Assembly (NCBI GenBank): GCA_035491895.1
Contig: DATJJY010000094.1
Location: 33,025-97,024, forward strand
Source of the DNA: Gemmatimonadales bacterium
Lineage (GTDB): Bacteria; Gemmatimonadota; Gemmatimonadetes; Gemmatimonadales; GWC2-71-9
DNA length: 64,000 bases
Direction: 5' to 3'
In this document: in pieces, positions 3,424 to 22,693 of the stretch
Layout: the number at the start of each line of letters is the position of its first letter
How positions within the stretch are numbered: the stretch's first letter is position 1
Made by a program: the position numbers and the translations under genes
Notes under the pieces: model-generated
Seen by the model: the letters and a program-made list of their open reading frames with translations, nothing else
The model's database searches: none
What the model was told of the DNA's origin: nothing

Positions 3424-4542
3424 TCAGCTCGCCGGCTTGCGCGAGCCGGACCGTTCCCAGTTGACGAACAGGAACCCACCCGGCGCGTCGAACTTCGGCT
3501 CTCCCTGCCCGGGGAGAATCTGGAGCTGCAGCTCATCGACCTTGTTCTTGGAGCAGTCCCAGCAGGCGAGTGCGTAATCGCCGTCCCGCCGCGTGCGCGA
3601 CAGCAGCATCACGTGCACCTGCGCGTTGTCGGTCACCAGGCTGTCGTTCTTGTAGAGGTGTCCGAACGCCCACAGCGCCACGGCGCTGTTGATCGTCGGC
3701 ACGAGCGGCGTATGCACGGCGGTATTGCCGTGGTAGTACAACCCCAGGATCACGCCACCGAAGCGCGGATGATGCGGCACGTCCTTCGTCTGCACGCGAT
3801 CGAGCACGAGCTTCCAGCGCGCCCCGTCCTGGGTGGTGAAATCGGCAGTACCGTCCACCGAATCACGCACTGCGCCTTTGTCCCAGGCCGTGAACGAGAA
3901 GTTGCCCGCGATCGGGGTCACGTTGTTCGAGTAGGGACCGTTTTTCACCTGCGACTCGAGCCCTTCCCGTTCGTTGCCGAACTGCTGGAGAATGGGAGCG
4001 GCGCTATCGGGGAAAGGGAAGGGGCCGGGAAGGATCTGGATGACGGGTCCTCCACTCGTCACCCGGATCGCCTGGACGCTCGCTGACGGCTCGTGCATTT
4101 CGTGATTGAGCGTTGCGCTGGCCGGCGCGGCGCTGTGGCCCAATGTCGGCGCGTTCTGGGCGCCCACGACTCTCAGATGCGTCTCCATACCCAGGTGTTT
4201 GTGCGAGTCCTCCCCCACCGGGCAGTAGACGTCATAGGTACCGGGCTTGAGCGTGAGCTGCAGTGTCGCACTCGAGCCCGGCTGAATGACGGCGGTCTCT
4301 TGTTCGACACCCTCTCCCTCGACCTCGAAGGCATGGGGGATGGTGCCGGCGTTCGTGACGCTGAACGTCACGGCGCCCGCCAGGACGGTGGCTTGCGAGA
4401 GCTCGACTTTCCATTCGGACAACTTGGCGCTGACCGCGGCAGGGTCGCTCGGCGCGCGGTGTGCCGGAGTCCCGGCGAGCGCCAGGGCGGCAAGCAAGAG
4501 CCGGCCGGCGCTGTGGGACGCAATGGCGTGCAAGGGGTGCAT
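3424..4542 (-). CDS. Secreted cupredoxin-domain protein fused to an unrecognised ~230-aa C-terminal domain
   Basis: 372-aa ORF with a GGAGGA RBS just upstream of the ATG (cat at 4540-4542). Signal-peptide-like N-terminus (LLLAALALAGTPA). N-terminal ~90 aa have candidate type-1 copper ligands: H in TIPHAFEVEG, and C/H/M in VYCPVGEDSHKHLGM. The remainder has no motif I recognise. Confidence 0.85.
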   Translation of the reverse strand: MHPLHAIASHSAGRLLLAALALAGTPAHRAPSDPAAVSAKLSEWKVELSQATVLAGAVTFSVTNAGTIPHAFEVEGEGVEQETAVIQPGSSATLQLTLKPGTYDVYCPVGEDSHKHLGMETHLRVVGAQNAPTLGHSAAPASATLNHEMHEPSASVQAIRVTSGGPVIQILPGPFPFPDSAAPILQQFGNEREGLESQVKNGPYSNNVTPIAGNFSFTAWDKGAVRDSVDGTADFTTQDGARWKLVLDRVQTKDVPHHPRFGGVILGLYYHGNTAVHTPLVPTINSAVALWAFGHLYKNDSLVTDNAQVHVMLLSRTRRDGDYALACWDCSKNKVDELQLQILPGQGEPKFDAPGGFLFVNWERSGSRKPAS

Positions 4543-4590
4543 ACGTGATCTTCCTCCAGAGAGAGTGCGACGGCAGTGTGGTCAGTGCTG

Positions 4591-4618
4591 GAGACTCCAG
4601 GCGCGGCGGGGTTATTCC
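4591..4618 (-). promoter_or_regulatory. Candidate ECF-type promoter for the cupredoxin-fusion gene (GGAATAA-N16-GTCTC)
   Basis: Reverse complement of 4591-4618 reads GGAATAA ccccgccgcgcctgga GTCTC. It lies ~50 nt upstream of the ATG at 4542. It mirrors the + strand copy 4 nt away. Confidence 0.45.
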
Positions 4619-4622
4619 GCCG

Positions 4623-4650
4623 GGAATAATCCCGCCGGTGCCTGAGTCTC
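4623..4650 (+). promoter_or_regulatory. Candidate autoregulated ECF-type promoter for the sigma/anti-sigma operon (GGAATAA-N16-GTCTC)
   Basis: Reads GGAATAA tcccgccggtgcctga GTCTC, ~33 nt upstream of the GTG at 4683. The geometry resembles the GGAAC-N16/17-GTCT class of ECF promoters. Confidence 0.45.
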
Positions 4651-4682
4651 CTCTGAAGGCCGACCAGACATTGTGAGGGCCG

Positions 4683-5207
4683 GTGGACTCAAGCGCGCTG
4701 GCGCGATTCGAAGCCGTCGTGTTGCCGCACTTGGACGCCGCCTACACGCTGGCCCGCTATCTGACGAGGAATGCGCACGATGCCGAAGACGTCGTGCAGG
4801 ACGCCTGTCTGCGGGCGCTCAAGTATTTCGACGGGTTCCGCGGGGAAGCAGCAAGCGCGCGCGCCTGGCTGCTCACCATCGTGCGCAACACCGCCCACAC
4901 GTGGCGCGGGCGCCAGCGTGGCGACGCGCTCACCACGGAGTTCGACGAGACGCAGCACAGCGAGGCTGTGGTGGATGACAGTCCCGAGGGACTGCTGCTG
5001 AAGCAGGACGCGAAGCACACCCTCGATCGTGCACTCGAACAGTTGGCGCCGGAATTCCGGGAGGTGATCGTGTTGCGCGAGCTCGAGGGATTGTCGTACA
5101 AGGAGATCAGCGAGGTGGCGGGCGTGCCGGTCGGCACGGTGATGTCGCGGCTGTCGCGGGCCCGCGCGCGTCTCCAGGAGGCGCTGCGTGAAGCGGAGGG
5201 GCGCTGA
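4683..5207 (+). CDS. ECF-family RNA polymerase sigma-70 factor
   Basis: 174 aa. Region 2: DAEDVVQDACLRALKYF...ARAWLLTIVRN. Region 4 HTH: REVIVLRELEGLSYKEISEVAGVPVGTVMSRLSRAR. Confidence 0.93.
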   Translation: MDSSALARFEAVVLPHLDAAYTLARYLTRNAHDAEDVVQDACLRALKYFDGFRGEAASARAWLLTIVRNTAHTWRGRQRGDALTTEFDETQHSEAVVDDSPEGLLLKQDAKHTLDRALEQLAPEFREVIVLRELEGLSYKEISEVAGVPVGTVMSRLSRARARLQEALREAEGR

Positions 5208-5976
5208 GGTGATCCATCCCGGCGAAGCACAACTGGACCTGTACCTGGACGGCGAGCTGGCTGCGGTCGATGCGCGCGAGCTGGAAGCGCACCTCGCACA
5301 GTGCGCCGAATGCGCCCGATTCCGGGAAGAGCGGCTCGCGCTGCGCGCGGCGATCAAGGCGAACGTTCCGACGTTCGAGGCATCGGACACCCTGCGTCAG
5401 CGCGTGCGGGCGTCCCTCCGCACGGCGGCGTCGGGCCAAACGCAGCGTCGCTTCACCTTCGGCGGCTGGTGGCGTCCACTGGCAATGGCCGCGTCCCTGG
5501 CGATCGTCGCGATCGGCAGCTGGAACCTGGCCATCGAGCGTGCGGCCGGCTCGGCCCTCGCCGATGACCTGCTGGCAAGCCATATCCGCTCACTGATGCC
5601 CGGTCACCTCACGGATGTGCTTTCTTCGGACCAGCACACGGTGAAGCCCTGGTTCAACGGCAGGCTCGACTACTCCCCTCCGGTCCACGACTTCGCCGGG
5701 CGCGGCTACCCCCTGCTCGGAGGACGACTCGACTACGTGGATGAGCGGACGGTCGCGGTGCTCGCGTATGGCCGGCGACAGCACCTGATCAACGTGTACC
5801 TGTGGCCCGCCACGCGCAGTCCGAGCGTTGCGCCCAAGACGCGCGACCGCCAGGGCTATCACGAGCTCCACTGGACCACGGCGGACTACACCTACTGGGT
5901 CGTCTCGGACCTTGGCTTGGCGGAGCTGCACGATTTCGTGCAGCTGGTCCAGCAGGCAGACACGCTCGCGCGATAG
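5188..5976 (+). CDS. Anti-sigma factor (zf-HC2 N-terminus, single TM, periplasmic C-terminal domain)
   Basis: Putative zinc-finger motif HLAQCAECARF. TM segment WWRPLAMAASLAIVAIGSW. Located directly after the sigma gene. The start is ambiguous: GTG 5188 overlaps the sigma gene by 20 nt, while in-frame GTG 5209 follows a GGAGGGG RBS. Confidence 0.85.
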   Translation: MKRRGAEVIHPGEAQLDLYLDGELAAVDARELEAHLAQCAECARFREERLALRAAIKANVPTFEASDTLRQRVRASLRTAASGQTQRRFTFGGWWRPLAMAASLAIVAIGSWNLAIERAAGSALADDLLASHIRSLMPGHLTDVLSSDQHTVKPWFNGRLDYSPPVHDFAGRGYPLLGGRLDYVDERTVAVLAYGRRQHLINVYLWPATRSPSVAPKTRDRQGYHELHWTTADYTYWVVSDLGLAELHDFVQLVQQADTLAR

Positions 5977-5977
5977 C

Positions 5978-7768
5978 TCAGGACGGAGCCTTCAGCTCGT
6001 GCAACTGCCGGTAGCGATTGCTCGACGCCACGAGCTCGCGGTGCGTGCCCATCGCCGCGACTCGGCCTTCCTCGAGCAATAGCACGAGGTCGGCGTCCTC
6101 GATGGACGCCAGGTCGTGCGTGATGCTGATGCACGTCTTGCCGGACATGAGGCGATCCAGCGCTTCCCGCACCTTGCCCTCGCTCTCCACGTCGAGCCCC
6201 GTCATCGGCTCGTCGAGAATGAGGATCGGCGCGTTGCGGACCAGCGCTCGCGCGATCGCGATGCGCTGGCGCTGCCCCCCCGACAAGGTGGCGCCCCGTT
6301 CGGCGATGACGGTGTCGTACCCGTCCTCCAGGTCTTGAATGAACTCGTCGGCGTTCGCGGCCCACGCCGCCGATTCGATCTCGAGGTCGGCCGCGTCGGG
6401 GCGGCCGTAGGCGATGTTCTCGCGGATCGTCGCGCCGAACAGGATCGCCTGCTGCAGTACCAGCCCGATGTTGCGCCGCAGCGACTTGATCTTGTAGTCC
6501 CCGATGTTTCGGCCGTCGATCCGGATCACACCGCTCTGCGGCTCGTACAACCGCAGGATCAGGGAGACGATGGTGGACTTACCCGCCCCCGACGCGCCTA
6601 CCAGCGCCAGGCGGCGGCCCGCCGGCACCGTGAACGAGACGTCGCGCAGCACCTCGCGGCCGTCGCCGTAATCGAACGACACGCGATCGAACTCGATCGC
6701 GCCCCGCAGCTCCGCCGCCTCGACGGCGCCGGCGTGGTCCATGATCTCGGGCTCGATGTCGAGCACCTCCGAAACGCGCTCCGCGCTCGCCATGGCTTTC
6801 GAGAAGTCGGTCGAGAGTGAGGCGAGGTTCTTCAACGGCTTGTACAGGCTGTTCAGGTACGCCACGACCAGTACCAGCGCCCCCGGCAGCAGCGTGCCGC
6901 GCAGCACCTCGAGCGCGCCGAACAGGACGGCCGCGGCCGTGCCGACCGCGGTGATGAGCTCCGATGAGCGACCGGCGGCGGCTCCCATCCGGGCCACGCG
7001 GATGCTCTCGATCACCGTTTCGGCCGTCACCTTGTCGAATTTCCGCATCTCGTGGGTTTCGCGCGCGAACGCCTGGACCAGCGGCACCGCCGAGAGCACT
7101 TCGCCCATACGAGCGGCGACCTGGCCCTCCTGCTTCTTCTGCGTCTTGACCGAGATCTTGGTCTTGCGGTACACGTGGAACAGGCTGTAGCCGAGGAACG
7201 GCATCGTCGCGAGGGAGATCACGCCGATCCGCCAATCGACGGTGAACAGGATCACGAGCATGCCCAGGACGGTCAACACCTGCGACGTGAATTTCAACAG
7301 CGAGTCCGCGAACCAATCCTTCAGCGTATTGGTATCGCCCGCGATCTTGGTCAGGAGATCGCCCGAGCGCGCCTTGGTGTGAAACGACAGGGACAGGCTC
7401 TGCAGGTGGGCGAACAGCTCCCGGCGCAGCGCATACACCGTGGTGTACCCGACGGAGGAGGTAATGAAAGTCTGGAAATAGGCGCACACACCCGACACGA
7501 GTGAGATCAGCACGATGCTCACGCACGCAGCCACGATGAACGGCACCGTACTGTCGGTGATGAGCGGCTGCAGGAATCGCAAGCTGTGGGGCAGCTCCTT
7601 GTGGAGCAGTCCGTGATCGATGATGAGTTTCAGCGGCCACGGCTTGGCGAGTTCGGTGAGAATGACGCCAATCGTGCACAACGCGGCGATCGCCAGGGGG
7701 CCTTTGGCCTCCCCCAGGTGGGTGACGAAGAACTGGCGGAACCGGGTGCGTCTGGCAGTGGCGGGCAT
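5978..7768 (-). CDS. ABC exporter, fused permease/ATPase (MsbA-like type I exporter)
   Basis: Six-TM exporter region plus nucleotide-binding domain: Walker A GASGAGKST, signature LSGGQRQR, Walker B ILILDEP. The ORF-track start is TTG 7774. The ATG at 7766-7768 (MPATARR...) is more likely. Confidence 0.93.
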   Translation of the reverse strand: MPATARRTRFRQFFVTHLGEAKGPLAIAALCTIGVILTELAKPWPLKLIIDHGLLHKELPHSLRFLQPLITDSTVPFIVAACVSIVLISLVSGVCAYFQTFITSSVGYTTVYALRRELFAHLQSLSLSFHTKARSGDLLTKIAGDTNTLKDWFADSLLKFTSQVLTVLGMLVILFTVDWRIGVISLATMPFLGYSLFHVYRKTKISVKTQKKQEGQVAARMGEVLSAVPLVQAFARETHEMRKFDKVTAETVIESIRVARMGAAAGRSSELITAVGTAAAVLFGALEVLRGTLLPGALVLVVAYLNSLYKPLKNLASLSTDFSKAMASAERVSEVLDIEPEIMDHAGAVEAAELRGAIEFDRVSFDYGDGREVLRDVSFTVPAGRRLALVGASGAGKSTIVSLILRLYEPQSGVIRIDGRNIGDYKIKSLRRNIGLVLQQAILFGATIRENIAYGRPDAADLEIESAAWAANADEFIQDLEDGYDTVIAERGATLSGGQRQRIAIARALVRNAPILILDEPMTGLDVESEGKVREALDRLMSGKTCISITHDLASIEDADLVLLLEEGRVAAMGTHRELVASSNRYRQLHELKAPS

Positions 7769-9420: not shown

Positions 9421-9765
9421 ATGGCAACCGCCACCCGACGCAATCGGTCGCTCGACCGGGTCTATGGCGCGATCGCGGATCCCACGCGGCGCGCGATGCT
9501 GGCCGTCCTGGCCGGCGGCGACGTCACCGTCGGCACCCTCGCCGGCCGTTTCCCCATCACCTTCAATGGTGCCTCCAAACACGTGAAGGTGCTGGAACGG
9601 GCCGGCCTCGTGACCCGTCGCGTCCGGGGCCGCGAGCACTGGCTGCGGCTCGAGCCCCGCCCGCTGCTCGACGCCGCCCGCTGGATCGAGCACTACCGCG
9701 CGTTCTGGGACACGCGACTGGCCGCGCTCGAGACGTTGCTGGTGCGGCACCATAACCGCGCTTGA
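9421..9765 (+). CDS. ArsR/SmtB-family transcriptional regulator
   Basis: Winged-HTH core: YGAIADPTRRAMLAVLAGGDVTVGTLAGRFPITFNGASKHVKVLERAGLVTRR. The ATG at 9421 is preferred over the TTG at 9412. Paired with an SRPBCC gene, a common arrangement. Confidence 0.9.
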   Translation: MATATRRNRSLDRVYGAIADPTRRAMLAVLAGGDVTVGTLAGRFPITFNGASKHVKVLERAGLVTRRVRGREHWLRLEPRPLLDAARWIEHYRAFWDTRLAALETLLVRHHNRA

Positions 9766-9876
9766 AAGCGCGGCTCGGCGCTTCGCGGGGGCCCTGAAGG
9801 GCAGGAGCCGCGTGAATAGTGATTGACGTCTTTCAAGACGTGTCGCGTCCGCGCCGAGCCCCGGCTTTAGCCGGGG
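9756..9876. repeat. Multi-hairpin intergenic element, family B copy 1
   Basis: Four hairpins: CCGCGCT-TGAA-AGCGCGG, GCCC-TGAA-GGGC, ACGTCTT-tc-AAGACGT and CCCCGGC-TTTA-GCCGGGG. GCTCGGCG (9773-9780) and CGCCGAGC (9852-9859) bracket the central hairpins. The same plan recurs at 10650-10723 and 14894-14998. Confidence 0.75.
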
Positions 9877-14837: not shown

Positions 14838-14893
14838 GGCGGGTAGGATACGGCTTCCCAGGTGGTAGAGCGAGACCTGCGCCAATGCACGAC

Positions 14894-14998
14894 GGCTGAA
14901 ACCATCGCTCGGCGCCCGCGGCGACGCGTCTTGAAAGACGCACGGAACGGGCCATTCATGGCCCGTCGCGCAGCGCCGAGCGCCGGCTTTAGCCGGCG
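14894..14998. repeat. Multi-hairpin intergenic element, family B copy 3
   Basis: GCTCGGCG (14907-14914), GCGTCT-TGAA-AGACGC (14926-14941), GGGCCA-TTCA-TGGCCC (14949-14964), CGCCGAGC (14974-14981) and CGCCGGC-TTTA-GCCGGCG (14981-14998). Confidence 0.75.
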
Positions 14999-20179: not shown

Positions 20180-20749
20180 ATGGGGGTGCGCATGGAGCAG
20201 CGGATCGGCTTTGGAAAGCGCCTGGGAGCTCTGGCCCTGGACTGTGTCTTCGTCATCATCCTGTCGGTTGTCGGCGGGACGACGATCGGTGGCTGGTTCG
20301 GCGCCTACACCGGAGCCCTGACGGCCGGTGCGGCGAGCGCCGCCGCGAGCGCCTCGGGTGATGCGCAGGCGGCGGCTGCCATGGGCGGGATCTTCGGCGC
20401 TATCATCGGCATGGCCCTGGCCGCGACGGTGATCGGCACGGTGTATTTCCTGCTCGAGGGATTCACCGGGTACACCCTTGGCAAGTTCATTCTGGGGATC
20501 CGGATTGCGAGCGACGACGGGACGGCCGCCGGCATCGGCAAGCTGCTGTTTCGGTACCTGGTGAAGAACTCCAACCTGGTTTTGTCGCTGTTGGCGCTGT
20601 TCACGGGTGTGACCGCATTGGCGACACTGGGTAAAGTGGCGGGGTTGCTCATCTTCGTCGGGTGCTTCTTCACGCTCGGCATGAAGCGGCAGGCGTTCCA
20701 CGACATGATCGCGAAGACGGCGGTGTATCCGAAGGGGGCGATAAAGTAG
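20180..20749 (+). CDS. RDD-family membrane protein
   Basis: GFGKRLGALALDCVFV...YTLGKFILGIRI...GMKRQAFHDMIAKTAV matches the RDD domain pattern. The start may be the ATG at 20192. Confidence 0.85.
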   Translation: MGVRMEQRIGFGKRLGALALDCVFVIILSVVGGTTIGGWFGAYTGALTAGAASAAASASGDAQAAAAMGGIFGAIIGMALAATVIGTVYFLLEGFTGYTLGKFILGIRIASDDGTAAGIGKLLFRYLVKNSNLVLSLLALFTGVTALATLGKVAGLLIFVGCFFTLGMKRQAFHDMIAKTAVYPKGAIK

Positions 20750-20750
20750 A

Positions 20751-20870
20751 ACGGTAGGAGACGGTAGGGGGCGGTAGGAGACGGTAAAGGGAAACGGCCG
20801 AGGCAACGTTGCCCGGCCGTTTTCTCGTCTCACCCCTACCGTCTCCTACCGTTCCCTACCGTCTCCTACC
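20751..20870. repeat. ~120-bp near-perfect palindrome built from 4 x 10-bp GGTAGG-containing repeats per arm
   Basis: Left arm: ACGGTAGGAG ACGGTAGGGG GCGGTAGGAG ACGGTAAAGG. Right arm: CCCCTACCG TCTCCTACCG TTCCCTACCG TCTCCTACCG. The arms flank a central hairpin. Confidence 0.9.
20792..20824. terminator. Central hairpin AAACGGCCG(A)GGCAAC/GTTGCCCGGCCGTTT followed by a short T-run; likely terminator for the RDD gene
   Basis: ~15-bp stem with one bulge, then TTTTC on the + strand, 43 nt after the stop codon. Confidence 0.5.
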
Positions 20871-21084
20871 GCCGCGACAGCCCCACCCCGAACTGAAACA
20901 GCTCCACGCTCGTCTGATCGAGCACCTGCTGGCCGTTGAATTTCACTTCCGCGCCGGTCGAACACGTCGCCGTTTCGCGGATCGATCCGCCAGGTCATCG
21001 CGCAGATCGACAACAGCCTCGACAACCTCAACCCGTCGGGACCCGGGATCGGGCAGAGCCGTTCACTCACCCACCTGAGTTCGC

Positions 21085-21123: not shown

Positions 21124-21205
21124 GCCCTGGTGGTGAAACTGGTAGACACGCTGTCTTGAGGGGGCAGTGCCGTAAGGCGTCCCGGTTCGAATCCGGGCCA
21201 GGGCA
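21124..21205 (+). tRNA. tRNA-Leu (anticodon GAG)
   Basis: Hand-folded. Acceptor GCCCTGG/CCAGGGC. Anticodon arm CTGTC-TTGAGGG-GGCAG. Long variable arm. T-arm CCCGG-TTCGAAT-CCGGG. Collinear with E. coli tRNA-Leu(GAG) as I remember it. CCA is not encoded. Confidence 0.9.
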
Positions 21206-21207
21206 TT

Positions 21208-21315
21208 ACTGCTAGACGCCCAGACGCACCGGGGAAAACAGTGAACAGATAGAGATAGGTAGGCCTACCTGTCCCCCGTTTACTGTTCTCCCCGGTGCGT
21301 CTGTGCTCTAGCAGT
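21208..21315. repeat. ~100-bp hairpin element, family A copy 1
   Basis: CTAGACGCCCAGACGCACCGGGGAAAACAG...GGTAGGCCTACC...CTGTTCTCCCCGGTGCGTCTGTGCTCTAG. The arms are mutual reverse complements. It begins 3 nt after the tRNA. Confidence 0.9.
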
Positions 21316-21327
21316 GCCTGTTCTTGT

Positions 21328-22541: not shown

Positions 22542-22549
22542 GCTGGTAC

Positions 22550-22666
22550 CTGCACGACTAGACGCACAGACGCACCGGGGAAAACAGCGAACAGATGAGG
22601 CCGGGTAGGCCTACCTGAGACCCGATATCTGTTCTCCCCTGTGCGTCTGTGCGTCTAGTATTGCAG
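22550..22666. repeat. ~100-bp hairpin element, family A copy 2 (same orientation as copy 1)
   Basis: CTAGACGCACAGACGCACCGGGGAAAACAG...GGTAGGCCTACC...CTGTTCTCCCCTGTGCGTCTGTGCGTCTAG. About 85 of ~100 positions are identical to copy 1 by hand alignment. It starts 9 nt after the arsM stop. Confidence 0.9.
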
Positions 22667-22693
22667 TTTCCCGTCTTTTAGGTCGTAGACCTT

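Follow-up and report, generated by a model that had tools for sequence, protein, structure and literature searches.

A candidate REP-like gene-end palindrome with tandem decamers in Gemmatimonadales

The 64-kb stretch of DNA analysed here (the window) carries a long palindrome at positions 20751-20871, directly downstream of a gene for an RDD-family membrane protein, in which left-hand repeat units, an A-tract, a GC hairpin, a T-tract and inverted right-hand units follow one another. From the letters alone, this structure had previously been read as a near-perfect palindrome too elaborate for a terminator, and as either an iteron-type protein-binding array or a foldback element (the sequence-only reading). 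The locus therefore raises the question of what kind of element this is, whether it occurs elsewhere and what it may do between the genes on either side.

Structure of the locus in the window

The features of the locus, with the methods by which they were located, are as follows.

20180 to 20749, plus strand: gene for an RDD-family membrane protein (open reading frame list, translation, Pfam RDD 2.1e-15)
20751 to 20790, plus strand: left array of four 10-bp RGRCGGTAGG-type units (pattern match, repeat search, TRF)
20791 to 20830, no strand assigned: core hairpin with an A-rich leader and a T-rich trailer (sequence, inverted-repeat search, RNA fold)
20831 to 20871, minus strand: right array of four units, CCTACC at 20835, 20845, 20855 and 20865 (pattern match, repeat search, TRF)
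20866 to 20962, minus strand: 3' remnant of a convergent gene, about 97 nt (blastn to orthologous loci)
20965 to 21061, plus strand: 3' remnant of a gene for a 430-aa protein, its last 97 nt (blastn; context, outside the element)
21124 to 21205, plus strand: tRNA-Leu(GAG) (ARAGORN; Rfam tRNA model 47.3 bits)
21206 to 21317, no strand assigned: 'family A' palindrome, copy 1, with GGTAGGCCTACC at its apex (inverted-repeat search, blastn)
22545 to 22671, no strand assigned: 'family A' palindrome, copy 2 (inverted-repeat search, blastn)

The RDD gene ends in the TAG at 20747-20749, and a single base separates this stop codon from the first decamer. The units of the left array read, in order, ACGGTAGGAG ACGGTAGGGG GCGGTAGGAG ACGGTAAAGG, of which three are perfect and the innermost is degenerate (GGTAAA); the four iterons per arm counted in the sequence-only reading are thus accurate for the right arm, and for the left arm only if this degenerate unit is included. 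The left array reads GGTAGG in the sense of the RDD gene and presents TAG in all three frames on three-frame translation. The right array reads GGTAGG on the minus strand, which is the sense of the formerly convergent gene, and the TAG of its outermost unit (20866-20868) is the stop codon of that gene. Between the arrays, the hairpin region (about 20792-20830) reads AAACGGCCGaGGCAAC/GTTGCCCGGCCGTTT, then TTTTCT, with the stem at 20795-20819 formed by CGGCCGaGGCAAC / GTTGCCCGGCCG and followed by the trailer TTTTCTCGTCT. A U-tract is encoded on both strands, as TTTTCT after the stem and as TTTCCCTTT on the opposite strand. A scan with a simple intrinsic-terminator consensus did not list the core hairpin because its stem is bulged.

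The inverted-repeat search paired 20752-20786 with 20837-20871 over 35 nt, with 94% of the positions complementary; with the arms offset by one unit, 22 nt paired at 100%. The palindrome is therefore real and near-perfect as had been proposed, with a match of 33/35 in the symmetric register, in place of the about 35 of 36 positions first counted by hand. TRF found a period of 10 in each arm and, for the right arm, also a period of 20 at 100% matches. A two-unit pattern matched six times in the window, always inside the palindrome, against 0.61 matches expected, and none of 100 shuffles reached six. Folded as RNA, the palindrome gave -101.5 kcal/mol (z = -12.25), which none of 200 shuffles equalled. 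A chance origin is excluded. It is also no known RNA family: Rfam gave no match to the palindrome at the gathering threshold, and at E <= 1 it returned generic long-hairpin miRNA models only, far below their thresholds.

Errors of library construction or assembly can create palindromes, and one metagenome contig (L115), 99.9% identical to the window through the left arm and the hairpin, ends inside the right arm. The locus is nevertheless reproduced in independent assemblies: in two other JGI samples there are contigs whose RDD protein is identical and whose next gene lies at the same distance of 609 nt, six diverged orthologous contigs and dozens of MAGs from unrelated studies carry homologous elements that differ in unit number, and the flanks of the palindrome are not inverted copies of each other. 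The assembly artefact, which the sequence-only reading had itself named as a danger, is effectively refuted already, and we give a chimeric foldback almost no weight.

Downstream of the palindrome, the remnants of two genes are fused. Window positions 20860-20962 align to L116, L117, L120, L121 and L122 at 84-96% identity (blastn), where the convergent gene is intact and encodes a small secreted or outer-membrane-like protein with the C-terminus ..FQFGVGLSRR*; a Pfam search with the intact ORF (203 aa, L120) gave no match. Positions 20965-21061 match L120 5526-5622, within the ORF at 4367-5659 of that contig, and L117 3626-3724. Together, the two remnants mark a deletion of about 1.76 kb in the lineage of the window. 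The next transcription unit downstream is the tRNA-Leu(GAG) gene, and the palindrome stands between it and the RDD gene.

Immediately beyond the tRNA gene lies the first of two 'family A' palindromes, both centred on GGTAGGCCTACC (at 21258 and 22604). The sequence-only reading had linked them to the decamer palindrome through the word GGTAGG, and this word is indeed shared; nothing beyond it is, and 'family A' is a separate dispersed family with only the hexamer in common. Small hairpin repeats of the kind that flank RAYT-like genes are also present in the window, at 9756-9876 and 14890-14998.

A repeat family in Gemmatimonadales

The pattern GGTAGG-N4-GGTAGG-N4-GGTAGG was searched in one genome per species across 185,579 species and was found at no fewer than 114 loci; among the matches listed, 35 belong to Gemmatimonadales/Gemmatimonadota (22 MAGs), and the RGRCGGTAGG unit was present at 32 loci or more, in about 19 Gemmatimonadales MAGs. 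The listed matches outside Gemmatimonadales were mostly unrelated simple repeats of 5 or 10 bp. The search for further GGTAGG-iteron palindromes that the sequence-only reading had called for was thus productive in Gemmatimonadales MAGs; the coding regions of the window are likewise similar only to Gemmatimonadales loci, among all loci collected. From 210 units of about 25 genomes we derived the consensus R-G-R-C-G-G-T-A-G-G, in which 8 of 10 positions are conserved. Most Gemmatimonadales loci are inverted pairs with 1 to about 10 units per arm, and the arms are often unequal.

A core of the form CGGCCGRGGC-loop-GCCYCGGCCG, with its A-rich leader and T-rich trailer, occurs in 11 instances within all the DNA collected, at five independent sites (the RDD site, L020, L049/L104, L054 and L082), and arrays flank it in 11/11 instances, in loci that had been selected for having arrays. 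The core stems are identical in the 10 aligned copies from these five sites, and the loops differ. The unlinked copies L020 and L049 share the junction TTGCCGTCTCWTACC, and the left-arm order agac, gggc, agac is common to the window and L104 despite their different loci. Since core, junctions and arm order are shared, the composite is a dispersed element and not a local terminator with odd flanks. The 'foldback element' of the sequence-only reading was in this sense well seen, as the structure belongs to a family of palindromic repeats dispersed over many loci and has been retained by relatives at the orthologous position. The window copy has every part of the full family definition, namely at least two in-phase units, an inverted second array and a core with A- and T-tracts. 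The core hairpin is missing from many other copies, and there are also one-sided copies and copies inside ORFs, from which it follows that the units persist without any terminator.

Five additional arrays in about 270 kb of non-seed Gemmatimonadales DNA, and the one in the 64-kb window, correspond to about one array per 50-65 kb, which extrapolates from these incomplete genomes to roughly several dozen to 100 copies per genome. The gene neighbours of the arrays are housekeeping genes (glnA, gltA, pyk, rpmA and genes for TonB-dependent receptors). A Pfam scan of 61 array-adjacent proteins returned housekeeping families only, with no recurrent mobility gene or transposase. An origin from phage or plasmid was rejected: blastn against 72,556 plasmids gave no match, and in the 58 viral contigs with a match to the pattern the arrays are unrelated and no palindrome of this type is present. 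Full-text literature searches for the unit and for intergenic repeats of Gemmatimonadota found no description, and this is apparently an undescribed, Gemmatimonadales-specific family of short gene-end repeats.

The orthologous site was compared in 23 metagenome loci encoding RDD relatives. All relatives with at least 73% RDD identity have an element between the RDD gene and the convergent ..FQFGVGLSRR* gene, with the following forms: 2-3 and 5 units with core (L116), 3-4 units per arm with core (L120, L121), degenerate units with core (L118), 3 and about 8 units without core (L122), one unit per arm (L117) and, in L119, a palindrome of GGTGGAGG units instead. No presence/absence polymorphism or empty site was found among these relatives. 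That relatives might carry only the central hairpin, a possibility raised by the sequence-only reading, is contradicted by these arrays. Unit number at the RDD site has changed repeatedly and independently in each arm. In L116, L120 and L121, the TAG of the outermost in-phase unit is the stop of both genes, and the RDD gene of the close orthologs ends on the TAG of a slightly degenerate outermost unit (aaGTAGGggac); in L117 and the window the distance from the RDD stop to the TAG of the first unit is 8 nt instead of 10. Relatives at 62-66% identity have an unrelated GC hairpin, GTCGCGACGCGCGG..CCGCGCGTCGCGAC, at the same place, and their RDD gene is two codons longer and ends in TAA. All site variants fold into hairpins. 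In this series a hairpin is therefore always present between the two gene ends, and in one clade the GGTAGG element has taken the place of the unrelated hairpin.

Within copies, the two arms are complementary to a degree of 0.900, against 0.898 for arms taken from different loci (permutation p = 0.41), and on this co-variation test selected arm pairing was rejected. One arm of L083 has moreover drifted to GGTAAG. As arm pairing is not locus-specific and drift of a single arm occurs, selection or homogenisation acts on the unit sequence, and pairing of the long stem is not what is conserved. The remark that the array is more than a terminator needs has thus proved sound, as the unit sequence is conserved across genomes though arm pairing is not locus-specific. 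The mutational profile of degenerate units had no position that clearly stood out.

The unit subtype is uniform within a genome. The window, DASSIL, DATFTG, CAZXKN and other genomes have RGACGGTAGG (AC), and DASUAL, DASZNX, DASYRZ and others have RGGCGGTAGG (GC). An orthologous copy in the central loop of an MFS transporter follows the same rule, its subtype tracking the genome (AC in L002 and L072, GC in L023), which hints at concerted evolution of dispersed copies or at a co-evolving trans-acting factor.

Gene ends, stop codons and known repeats

As judged from a heuristic ORF table, a gene ends no more than about 10 nt away from nearly every array, and about 60% of the array-adjacent stops are the TAG of an in-phase unit, at offsets of +5, +15, +25 or -5, -15, -25. 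In inverted arrays, gene 3' ends read into the GGTAGG strand (the window and about 30 other loci), and in palindromic copies both convergent genes meet GGTAGG first. Where a one-sided array stands between co-directional genes, GGTAGG is on the sense strand in 8/9 cases; in L043, rpmA, a Plug-domain gene and a 23S_rRNA_IVP gene stand in succession with an array after each. The arrays keep away from promoter-type regions between divergent genes. As 10 bp is no whole number of codons, three successive GGTAGG units carry TAG in every frame, as verified in both arms; read from the opposite strand, the units contain no stop codon at all. Where an array lies inside an ORF, it is CCTACC that stands on the sense strand, or else the TAG in frame has been altered by mutation. 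In a DUF1501 ORF, the array lies after the Tat signal, in a linker, where it encodes PYRPLPSPT. In the MFS transporter, the whole palindrome lies inside the central loop, and the ORF stays open through TAG>CAG in L002 and L072 and through TAG>TAT in L023. A search for empty sites among MFS homologs found array-derived loop sequence in all of the 120 best (>=65% identity), and no insertion boundary could be defined.

The closest known kind is the GTAG-tagged REP/BIME of E. coli, Pseudomonas and Stenotrophomonas (SMAG). GTAG-tagged REPs are found mainly no more than 20 bp from an ORF 3' end, where the neighbouring genes are convergent or unidirectional; their ends often give a TAG stop, some copies are intragenic and some form tandem-reiterated clusters (Di Nocera et al. 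2013, PMC3733652), and REP heads commonly read GTAGG (Nunvar et al. 2010, PMC2817692). The decamer family resembles them in being short, dispersed, hairpin-forming and intergenic, with GTAG(G), a location near ORF 3' ends and TAG stops, and also in its intragenic in-frame copies, its tandem clusters and the proposed roles in termination and mRNA stabilisation. REPs number more than about 100 copies per genome, a value to be set against the extrapolated number given above, and gene contexts match. A REP is defined, however, as a stem-loop ending on one side in a single GT(A/G)G tag that stays unpaired (PMC3733652, PMC2817692), whereas in the decamer family GTAG stands inside every unit and the arms are mutually complementary. 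Moreover, the REP unit is an imperfect palindrome of 20-40 nt, the decamer is non-palindromic and present in 1 to about 10 copies per hairpin side, and only some copies of the decamer family have a stem-loop body. On these defining features, membership among canonical GTAG-REPs fails.

No association with RAYT genes emerged from the four lineage genes inspected. A tblastn search with Y1-transposase sequences gave one Y1_Tnp gene, in L088, that lies 1.6 kb from an array, and three homologs of it were taken from other Gemmatimonadales contigs. The four Y1_Tnp/RayT-like genes (L088, L196, L200, L201) are flanked by hairpin repeats of CACGCTGAAGCGTG or of CCCACTCTTCAGAGTGGG / ACTGCGCTTGAAGCGCAGT, and none of them by GGTAGG arrays.

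Other known systems share single traits with the decamer family. Rickettsia palindromic elements (RPE) and intragenic REPs are similar as in-frame palindromic repeats that add short peptide segments; in contrast to RPE, most decamer copies are extragenic at gene ends, and unit structure and lineage are unrelated. In the DNA uptake sequences of Neisseria (DUS) and Pasteurellaceae (USS), inverted pairs of a word of about 10 bp downstream of genes form terminator hairpins, and a conserved, inverted word of this length 3' of genes is what the decamer family has in common with them. Tandem arrays are not known as a feature of DUS. An uptake role was rejected for the window, where GGTAGG occurs 20 times outside the element, mid to low among 30 letter permutations (3 to 60), so that neither this word nor CGGTAGG is over-represented outside the element within the 64 kb; the other CGGTAGG matches (67, 59448, 59593, 59736) are ordinary coding sequence. 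Mycobacterial MIRU are tandem intergenic units of 40-100 bp with variable copy number that are oriented with genes and overlap stop codons. The decamer arrays are likewise tandem, variable in number, placed at gene junctions, oriented with the genes and overlapping with stops; they differ in having 10-bp units, set as inverted arrays around a hairpin, and in belonging to a different phylum.

Plasmid iterons and the centromere arrays bound by ParR or omega consist of phased short direct repeats, sometimes in two blocks around a core, and the phased repeats that flank the core of the decamer element are alike in this respect. Taken as a replication or partition site, the iteron-type array of the sequence-only reading nevertheless finds no support: no rep or par gene is nearby, the neighbours in the window are RDD, tRNA-Leu and ArsR genes, no plasmid match was obtained, and dozens of chromosomal copies are dispersed beside housekeeping genes.

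Function, competing readings and significance

We consider it probable that the palindrome is a dispersed, non-autonomous, REP-like gene-end module which supplies stop codons and a bidirectional terminator and whose arrays are prone to slippage. Its full architecture is (RGRCGGTAGG)n, A-tract, CGGCCGRGGC-loop-GCCYCGGCCG, T-tract, (CCTACCGYCY)m, a symmetric module between gene ends. A gene from either side enters the GGTAGG strand and meets a TAG within three units whatever its frame, so that translation would stop; the central hairpin with its U-tract would then terminate transcription or stabilise the RNA. Termination or stabilisation by the core is what we infer from its sequence, and the hairpin would form co-transcriptionally, before the opposite arm is made. 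In the window, the copy would end the RDD gene and insulate tRNA-Leu, and its right arm would formerly have served the convergent gene, of which the deletion has left only the stump. That the arrays are palindromic may then be a by-product of serving two convergent genes; arms of unequal length, and one-sided copies where the genes are co-directional, fit such an origin. Unit number drifts fast and independently per arm, most simply by replication slippage or unequal exchange, and slippage is probably the source of the variation in array length. The dispersal of the copies suggests that the element was once mobile. A terminator role leaves the conservation of the unit across genomes and the AC/GC subtypes unexplained.

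These two features are what a duplex-binding protein would account for. The arrays could be phased dsDNA platforms for a lineage-specific protein that coats both arms, such as a nucleoid-associated protein, a regulator or a ParR/omega-like ribbon-helix-helix protein, and the terminator hairpin would then be incidental. The period of exactly 10 bp is one helical turn, unit positions are conserved across genomes with no maintenance of arm pairing, and a subtype that is uniform per genome and differs at the orthologous copies of L002/L072 and L023 is what co-evolution with a factor would give. The strict strand rule and the overlap with stop codons point, however, to a constraint on transcript or translation that symmetric duplex binding does not predict; furthermore, unit number at one orthologous site ranges from 1 to about 10, arrays shun the promoter-type divergent regions and no candidate protein gene is linked to them. 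We regard a binding platform as unlikely. A reading in which the functional part is the G-rich array on the sense strand, acting as a two-tier G-quadruplex, by R-loop formation, by ribosome holding at an SD-like UAGGAGG or through an RNA-binding protein, would accommodate the strand rule, since genes always enter the G-rich strand, as well as the one-sided arrays after three consecutive genes of L043, rpmA among them. The units have AGGAG or AGGAGG directly after UAG, and the arms score +/-1.15 in G4Hunter, near the 99.9th percentile of the window (1.26). This score is below the usual thresholds of 1.2-1.5 and suggestive at best, and structures of two tetrads are the only possible ones. Pairing with the C-rich arm would compete with them wherever a copy is palindromic, and arrays keep no fixed distance to downstream start codons. 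We hold such a role, and with it the idea that the inverted arm exists only since the convergent gene needs the same feature, to be very doubtful, more so than protein binding.

Alternatively, the palindrome could be a purely selfish MITE- or REP-like element without host function, its GTAGG units serving a transposase from another locus, for instance a RAYT or a different HUH enzyme, as multiple binding or cleavage sites, and gene ends being places that tolerate insertions. Consistent with this are the dispersed composite with its shared internal junctions, the copies within ORFs (the MFS central loop and the DUF1501 linker), the existence of RAYT-like genes in Gemmatimonadales, the GTAGG head typical of REPs that RAYTs recognise (PMC2817692) and a Pseudomonas REPIN among the matches of the genome scan (L039), whose head similarly repeats CCTACCagct in tandem. 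The element has inverted arms, as the terminal inverted repeats of a MITE would be; yet no target-site duplication is visible, as the outer boundaries of independent copies show no consistent direct repeat and gene stop codons account for their CTAG or TAG flanks. All four RAYT-like genes inspected are flanked by other hairpin repeats, the RDD site is never empty down to 73% identity, and the sense-strand rule of the one-sided arrays suggests selection after insertion. A selfish element without function is, on balance, improbable, to about the same degree as the binding platform.

The decamer RGRCGGTAGG could be the recognition site of a putative lineage-specific, co-evolving trans-acting factor, since the AC and GC subtypes go with the genome rather than the locus, even at the orthologous copy inside an ORF; this is a proposal that we put forward tentatively and consider to have a modest chance at most. 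If it is correct, a new repeat-and-factor system would be at hand, either a mobilisation or homogenisation machinery other than RAYT or a phased protein platform at gene ends, which would be analogous to REP/RAYT yet architecturally distinct, with tandem heads of one helical turn replacing the tagged hairpin. The genome-specific subtype raises the question of concerted evolution versus a co-evolving factor in the way that REPIN/RAYT does in proteobacteria.

Gemmatimonadota are abundant soil bacteria, nearly all of them known from MAGs alone. For such genomes the decamer family explains recurrent contig breaks and spurious ORFs in assemblies, and it serves as a marker of gene ends. Since unit number changes between close relatives, the loci could be used as VNTR-like markers for uncultured populations. 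As a natural design the element is compact, the 10-bp period giving stops in three frames and in both directions around a shared putative terminator. We describe it as a lineage-specific, REP-like gene-end palindromic repeat with unusual tandem decamers one helical turn apart.

Surroundings of the RDD and tRNA-Leu genes

Relative to three metagenome contigs carrying RDD orthologs (L117, L120 and L122), about 1.76 kb is missing from the window downstream of its GGTAGG palindrome, an array of phased 10-bp RGRCGGTAGG units in inverted arms located 3' of the RDD gene (20751-20871). The deletion mostly removed a convergent gene for a 203-aa secreted or outer-membrane-like protein and the gene for a 430-aa protein, of which only the 3' ends remain, joined at 20962/20965. 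The features of this region and its counterparts were as follows:

Window 20866-20962, minus strand: 3' remnant of the convergent 203-aa gene
Window 20965-21061, plus strand: 3' remnant of the 430-aa protein gene
Window 21206-21317: family A palindrome, copy 1
Window 22545-22671: family A palindrome, copy 2
L120, about 5860-6100: family A copies
L016, about 5040-5165 and 5830-5940: family A copies
L119 2915-3025: palindrome of GGTGGAGG-type units at the orthologous RDD site

In L119, another RDD-bearing contig (RDD identity 78%), GGTGGAGG-type units instead of GGTAGG ones make up the palindrome, which may be either a divergent subtype of the GGTAGG element or its replacement. REP heads have GTGG as their alternative form.

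Family A palindromes are about 110 nt long, with GGTAGGCCTACC at the apex and AGACGCAC repeats in the arms, and are also dispersed in L016, a Gemmatimonadales MAG. The two window copies enclose an ArsR and SAM-methyltransferase gene pair immediately 3' of tRNA-Leu, and in the orthologous L120 two family A copies are adjacent, with no such cassette in between; the cassette looks like one gained or lost between family A copies. An Rfam search of the whole window at the gathering threshold returned no match, the tRNA-Leu (21124-21205) included, and in a search of a sub-region the same tRNA reached 47.3 bits, the gathering score being 29; the whole-window miss appears to be an effect of the search filter, not biology.

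GGTAGG arrays at gene junctions and in coding sequence

Arrays of the GGTAGG type were found between and within genes at other loci:

L043 2540-2600, 3036-3080 and 3885-3930: sense-strand arrays, genes on the minus strand
L002 2692-2819, L072 7895-7989 and L023 72-146: in-frame palindrome in an MFS transporter gene (PF07690)
L038 4327-4516: arms around the start of a DUF1501 gene

In L043, an array follows each of three successive genes: rpmA, the gene for a CarboxypepD_reg/Plug protein, and a 23S_rRNA_IVP gene of lower GC content that encodes a four-helix bundle. Arrays occupy nearly all gene junctions along this stretch of L043, to which L100 appears to be orthologous. The central cytoplasmic loop of the MFS transporter, variable in length across 120 homologs, holds an entire palindrome with the reading frame kept, and the sole unit with a potentially in-frame TAG is altered to CAG (L002 and L072) or TAT (L023). 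The L038 arms are separated by about 105 nt containing the DUF1501 start codon and Tat signal, and the CCTACC arm encodes ..PYRPLPSPT.. between signal peptide and domain.

Look-alike arrays and RAYT-associated repeats

Similar arrays outside Gemmatimonadales, Y1_Tnp/RayT-like genes of Gemmatimonadales with their own repeats, and a third repeat family were located as follows:

L039 6720-6965: REPIN-like long hairpin, Pseudomonas sp. dw_612
L088 6100-6760, L196 1079-1812, L200 160-240 and L201 950-1660: Y1_Tnp/RayT-like genes with own repeats
Window 9756-9876 and 14890-14998, L033 5137-5251: small-hairpin clusters of the third family

The Pseudomonas hairpin, in which the GTAGG head is repeated 3-5 times on one side as CCTACCagct with 10-bp spacing, gives an independent example, from a classical REP lineage, of heads reiterated in tandem. 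Three near-identical phage contigs (L147, L174 and L175) carry three CCTACCgcgc units adjoining short GC palindromes; these are possibly phage iterons, and do not belong to the Gemmatimonadales family.

The third-family clusters are enclosed by GCTCGGCGC / GCGCCGAGC, and their hairpin loops have the form ...CTTGAAAG..., as CGCGCTTGAAAGCGCG, GACGTCTTTCAAGACGT and CCGGCTTTAGCCGG. They resemble the small hairpin repeats beside the Y1_Tnp/RayT-like genes, which read GTCGACACGCTGAAGCGTGCGCC, or CCCACTCTTCAGAGTGGG with ACTGCGCTTGAAGCGCAGT. These genes with their flanking hairpins are a classical RAYT/REP arrangement within Gemmatimonadota.
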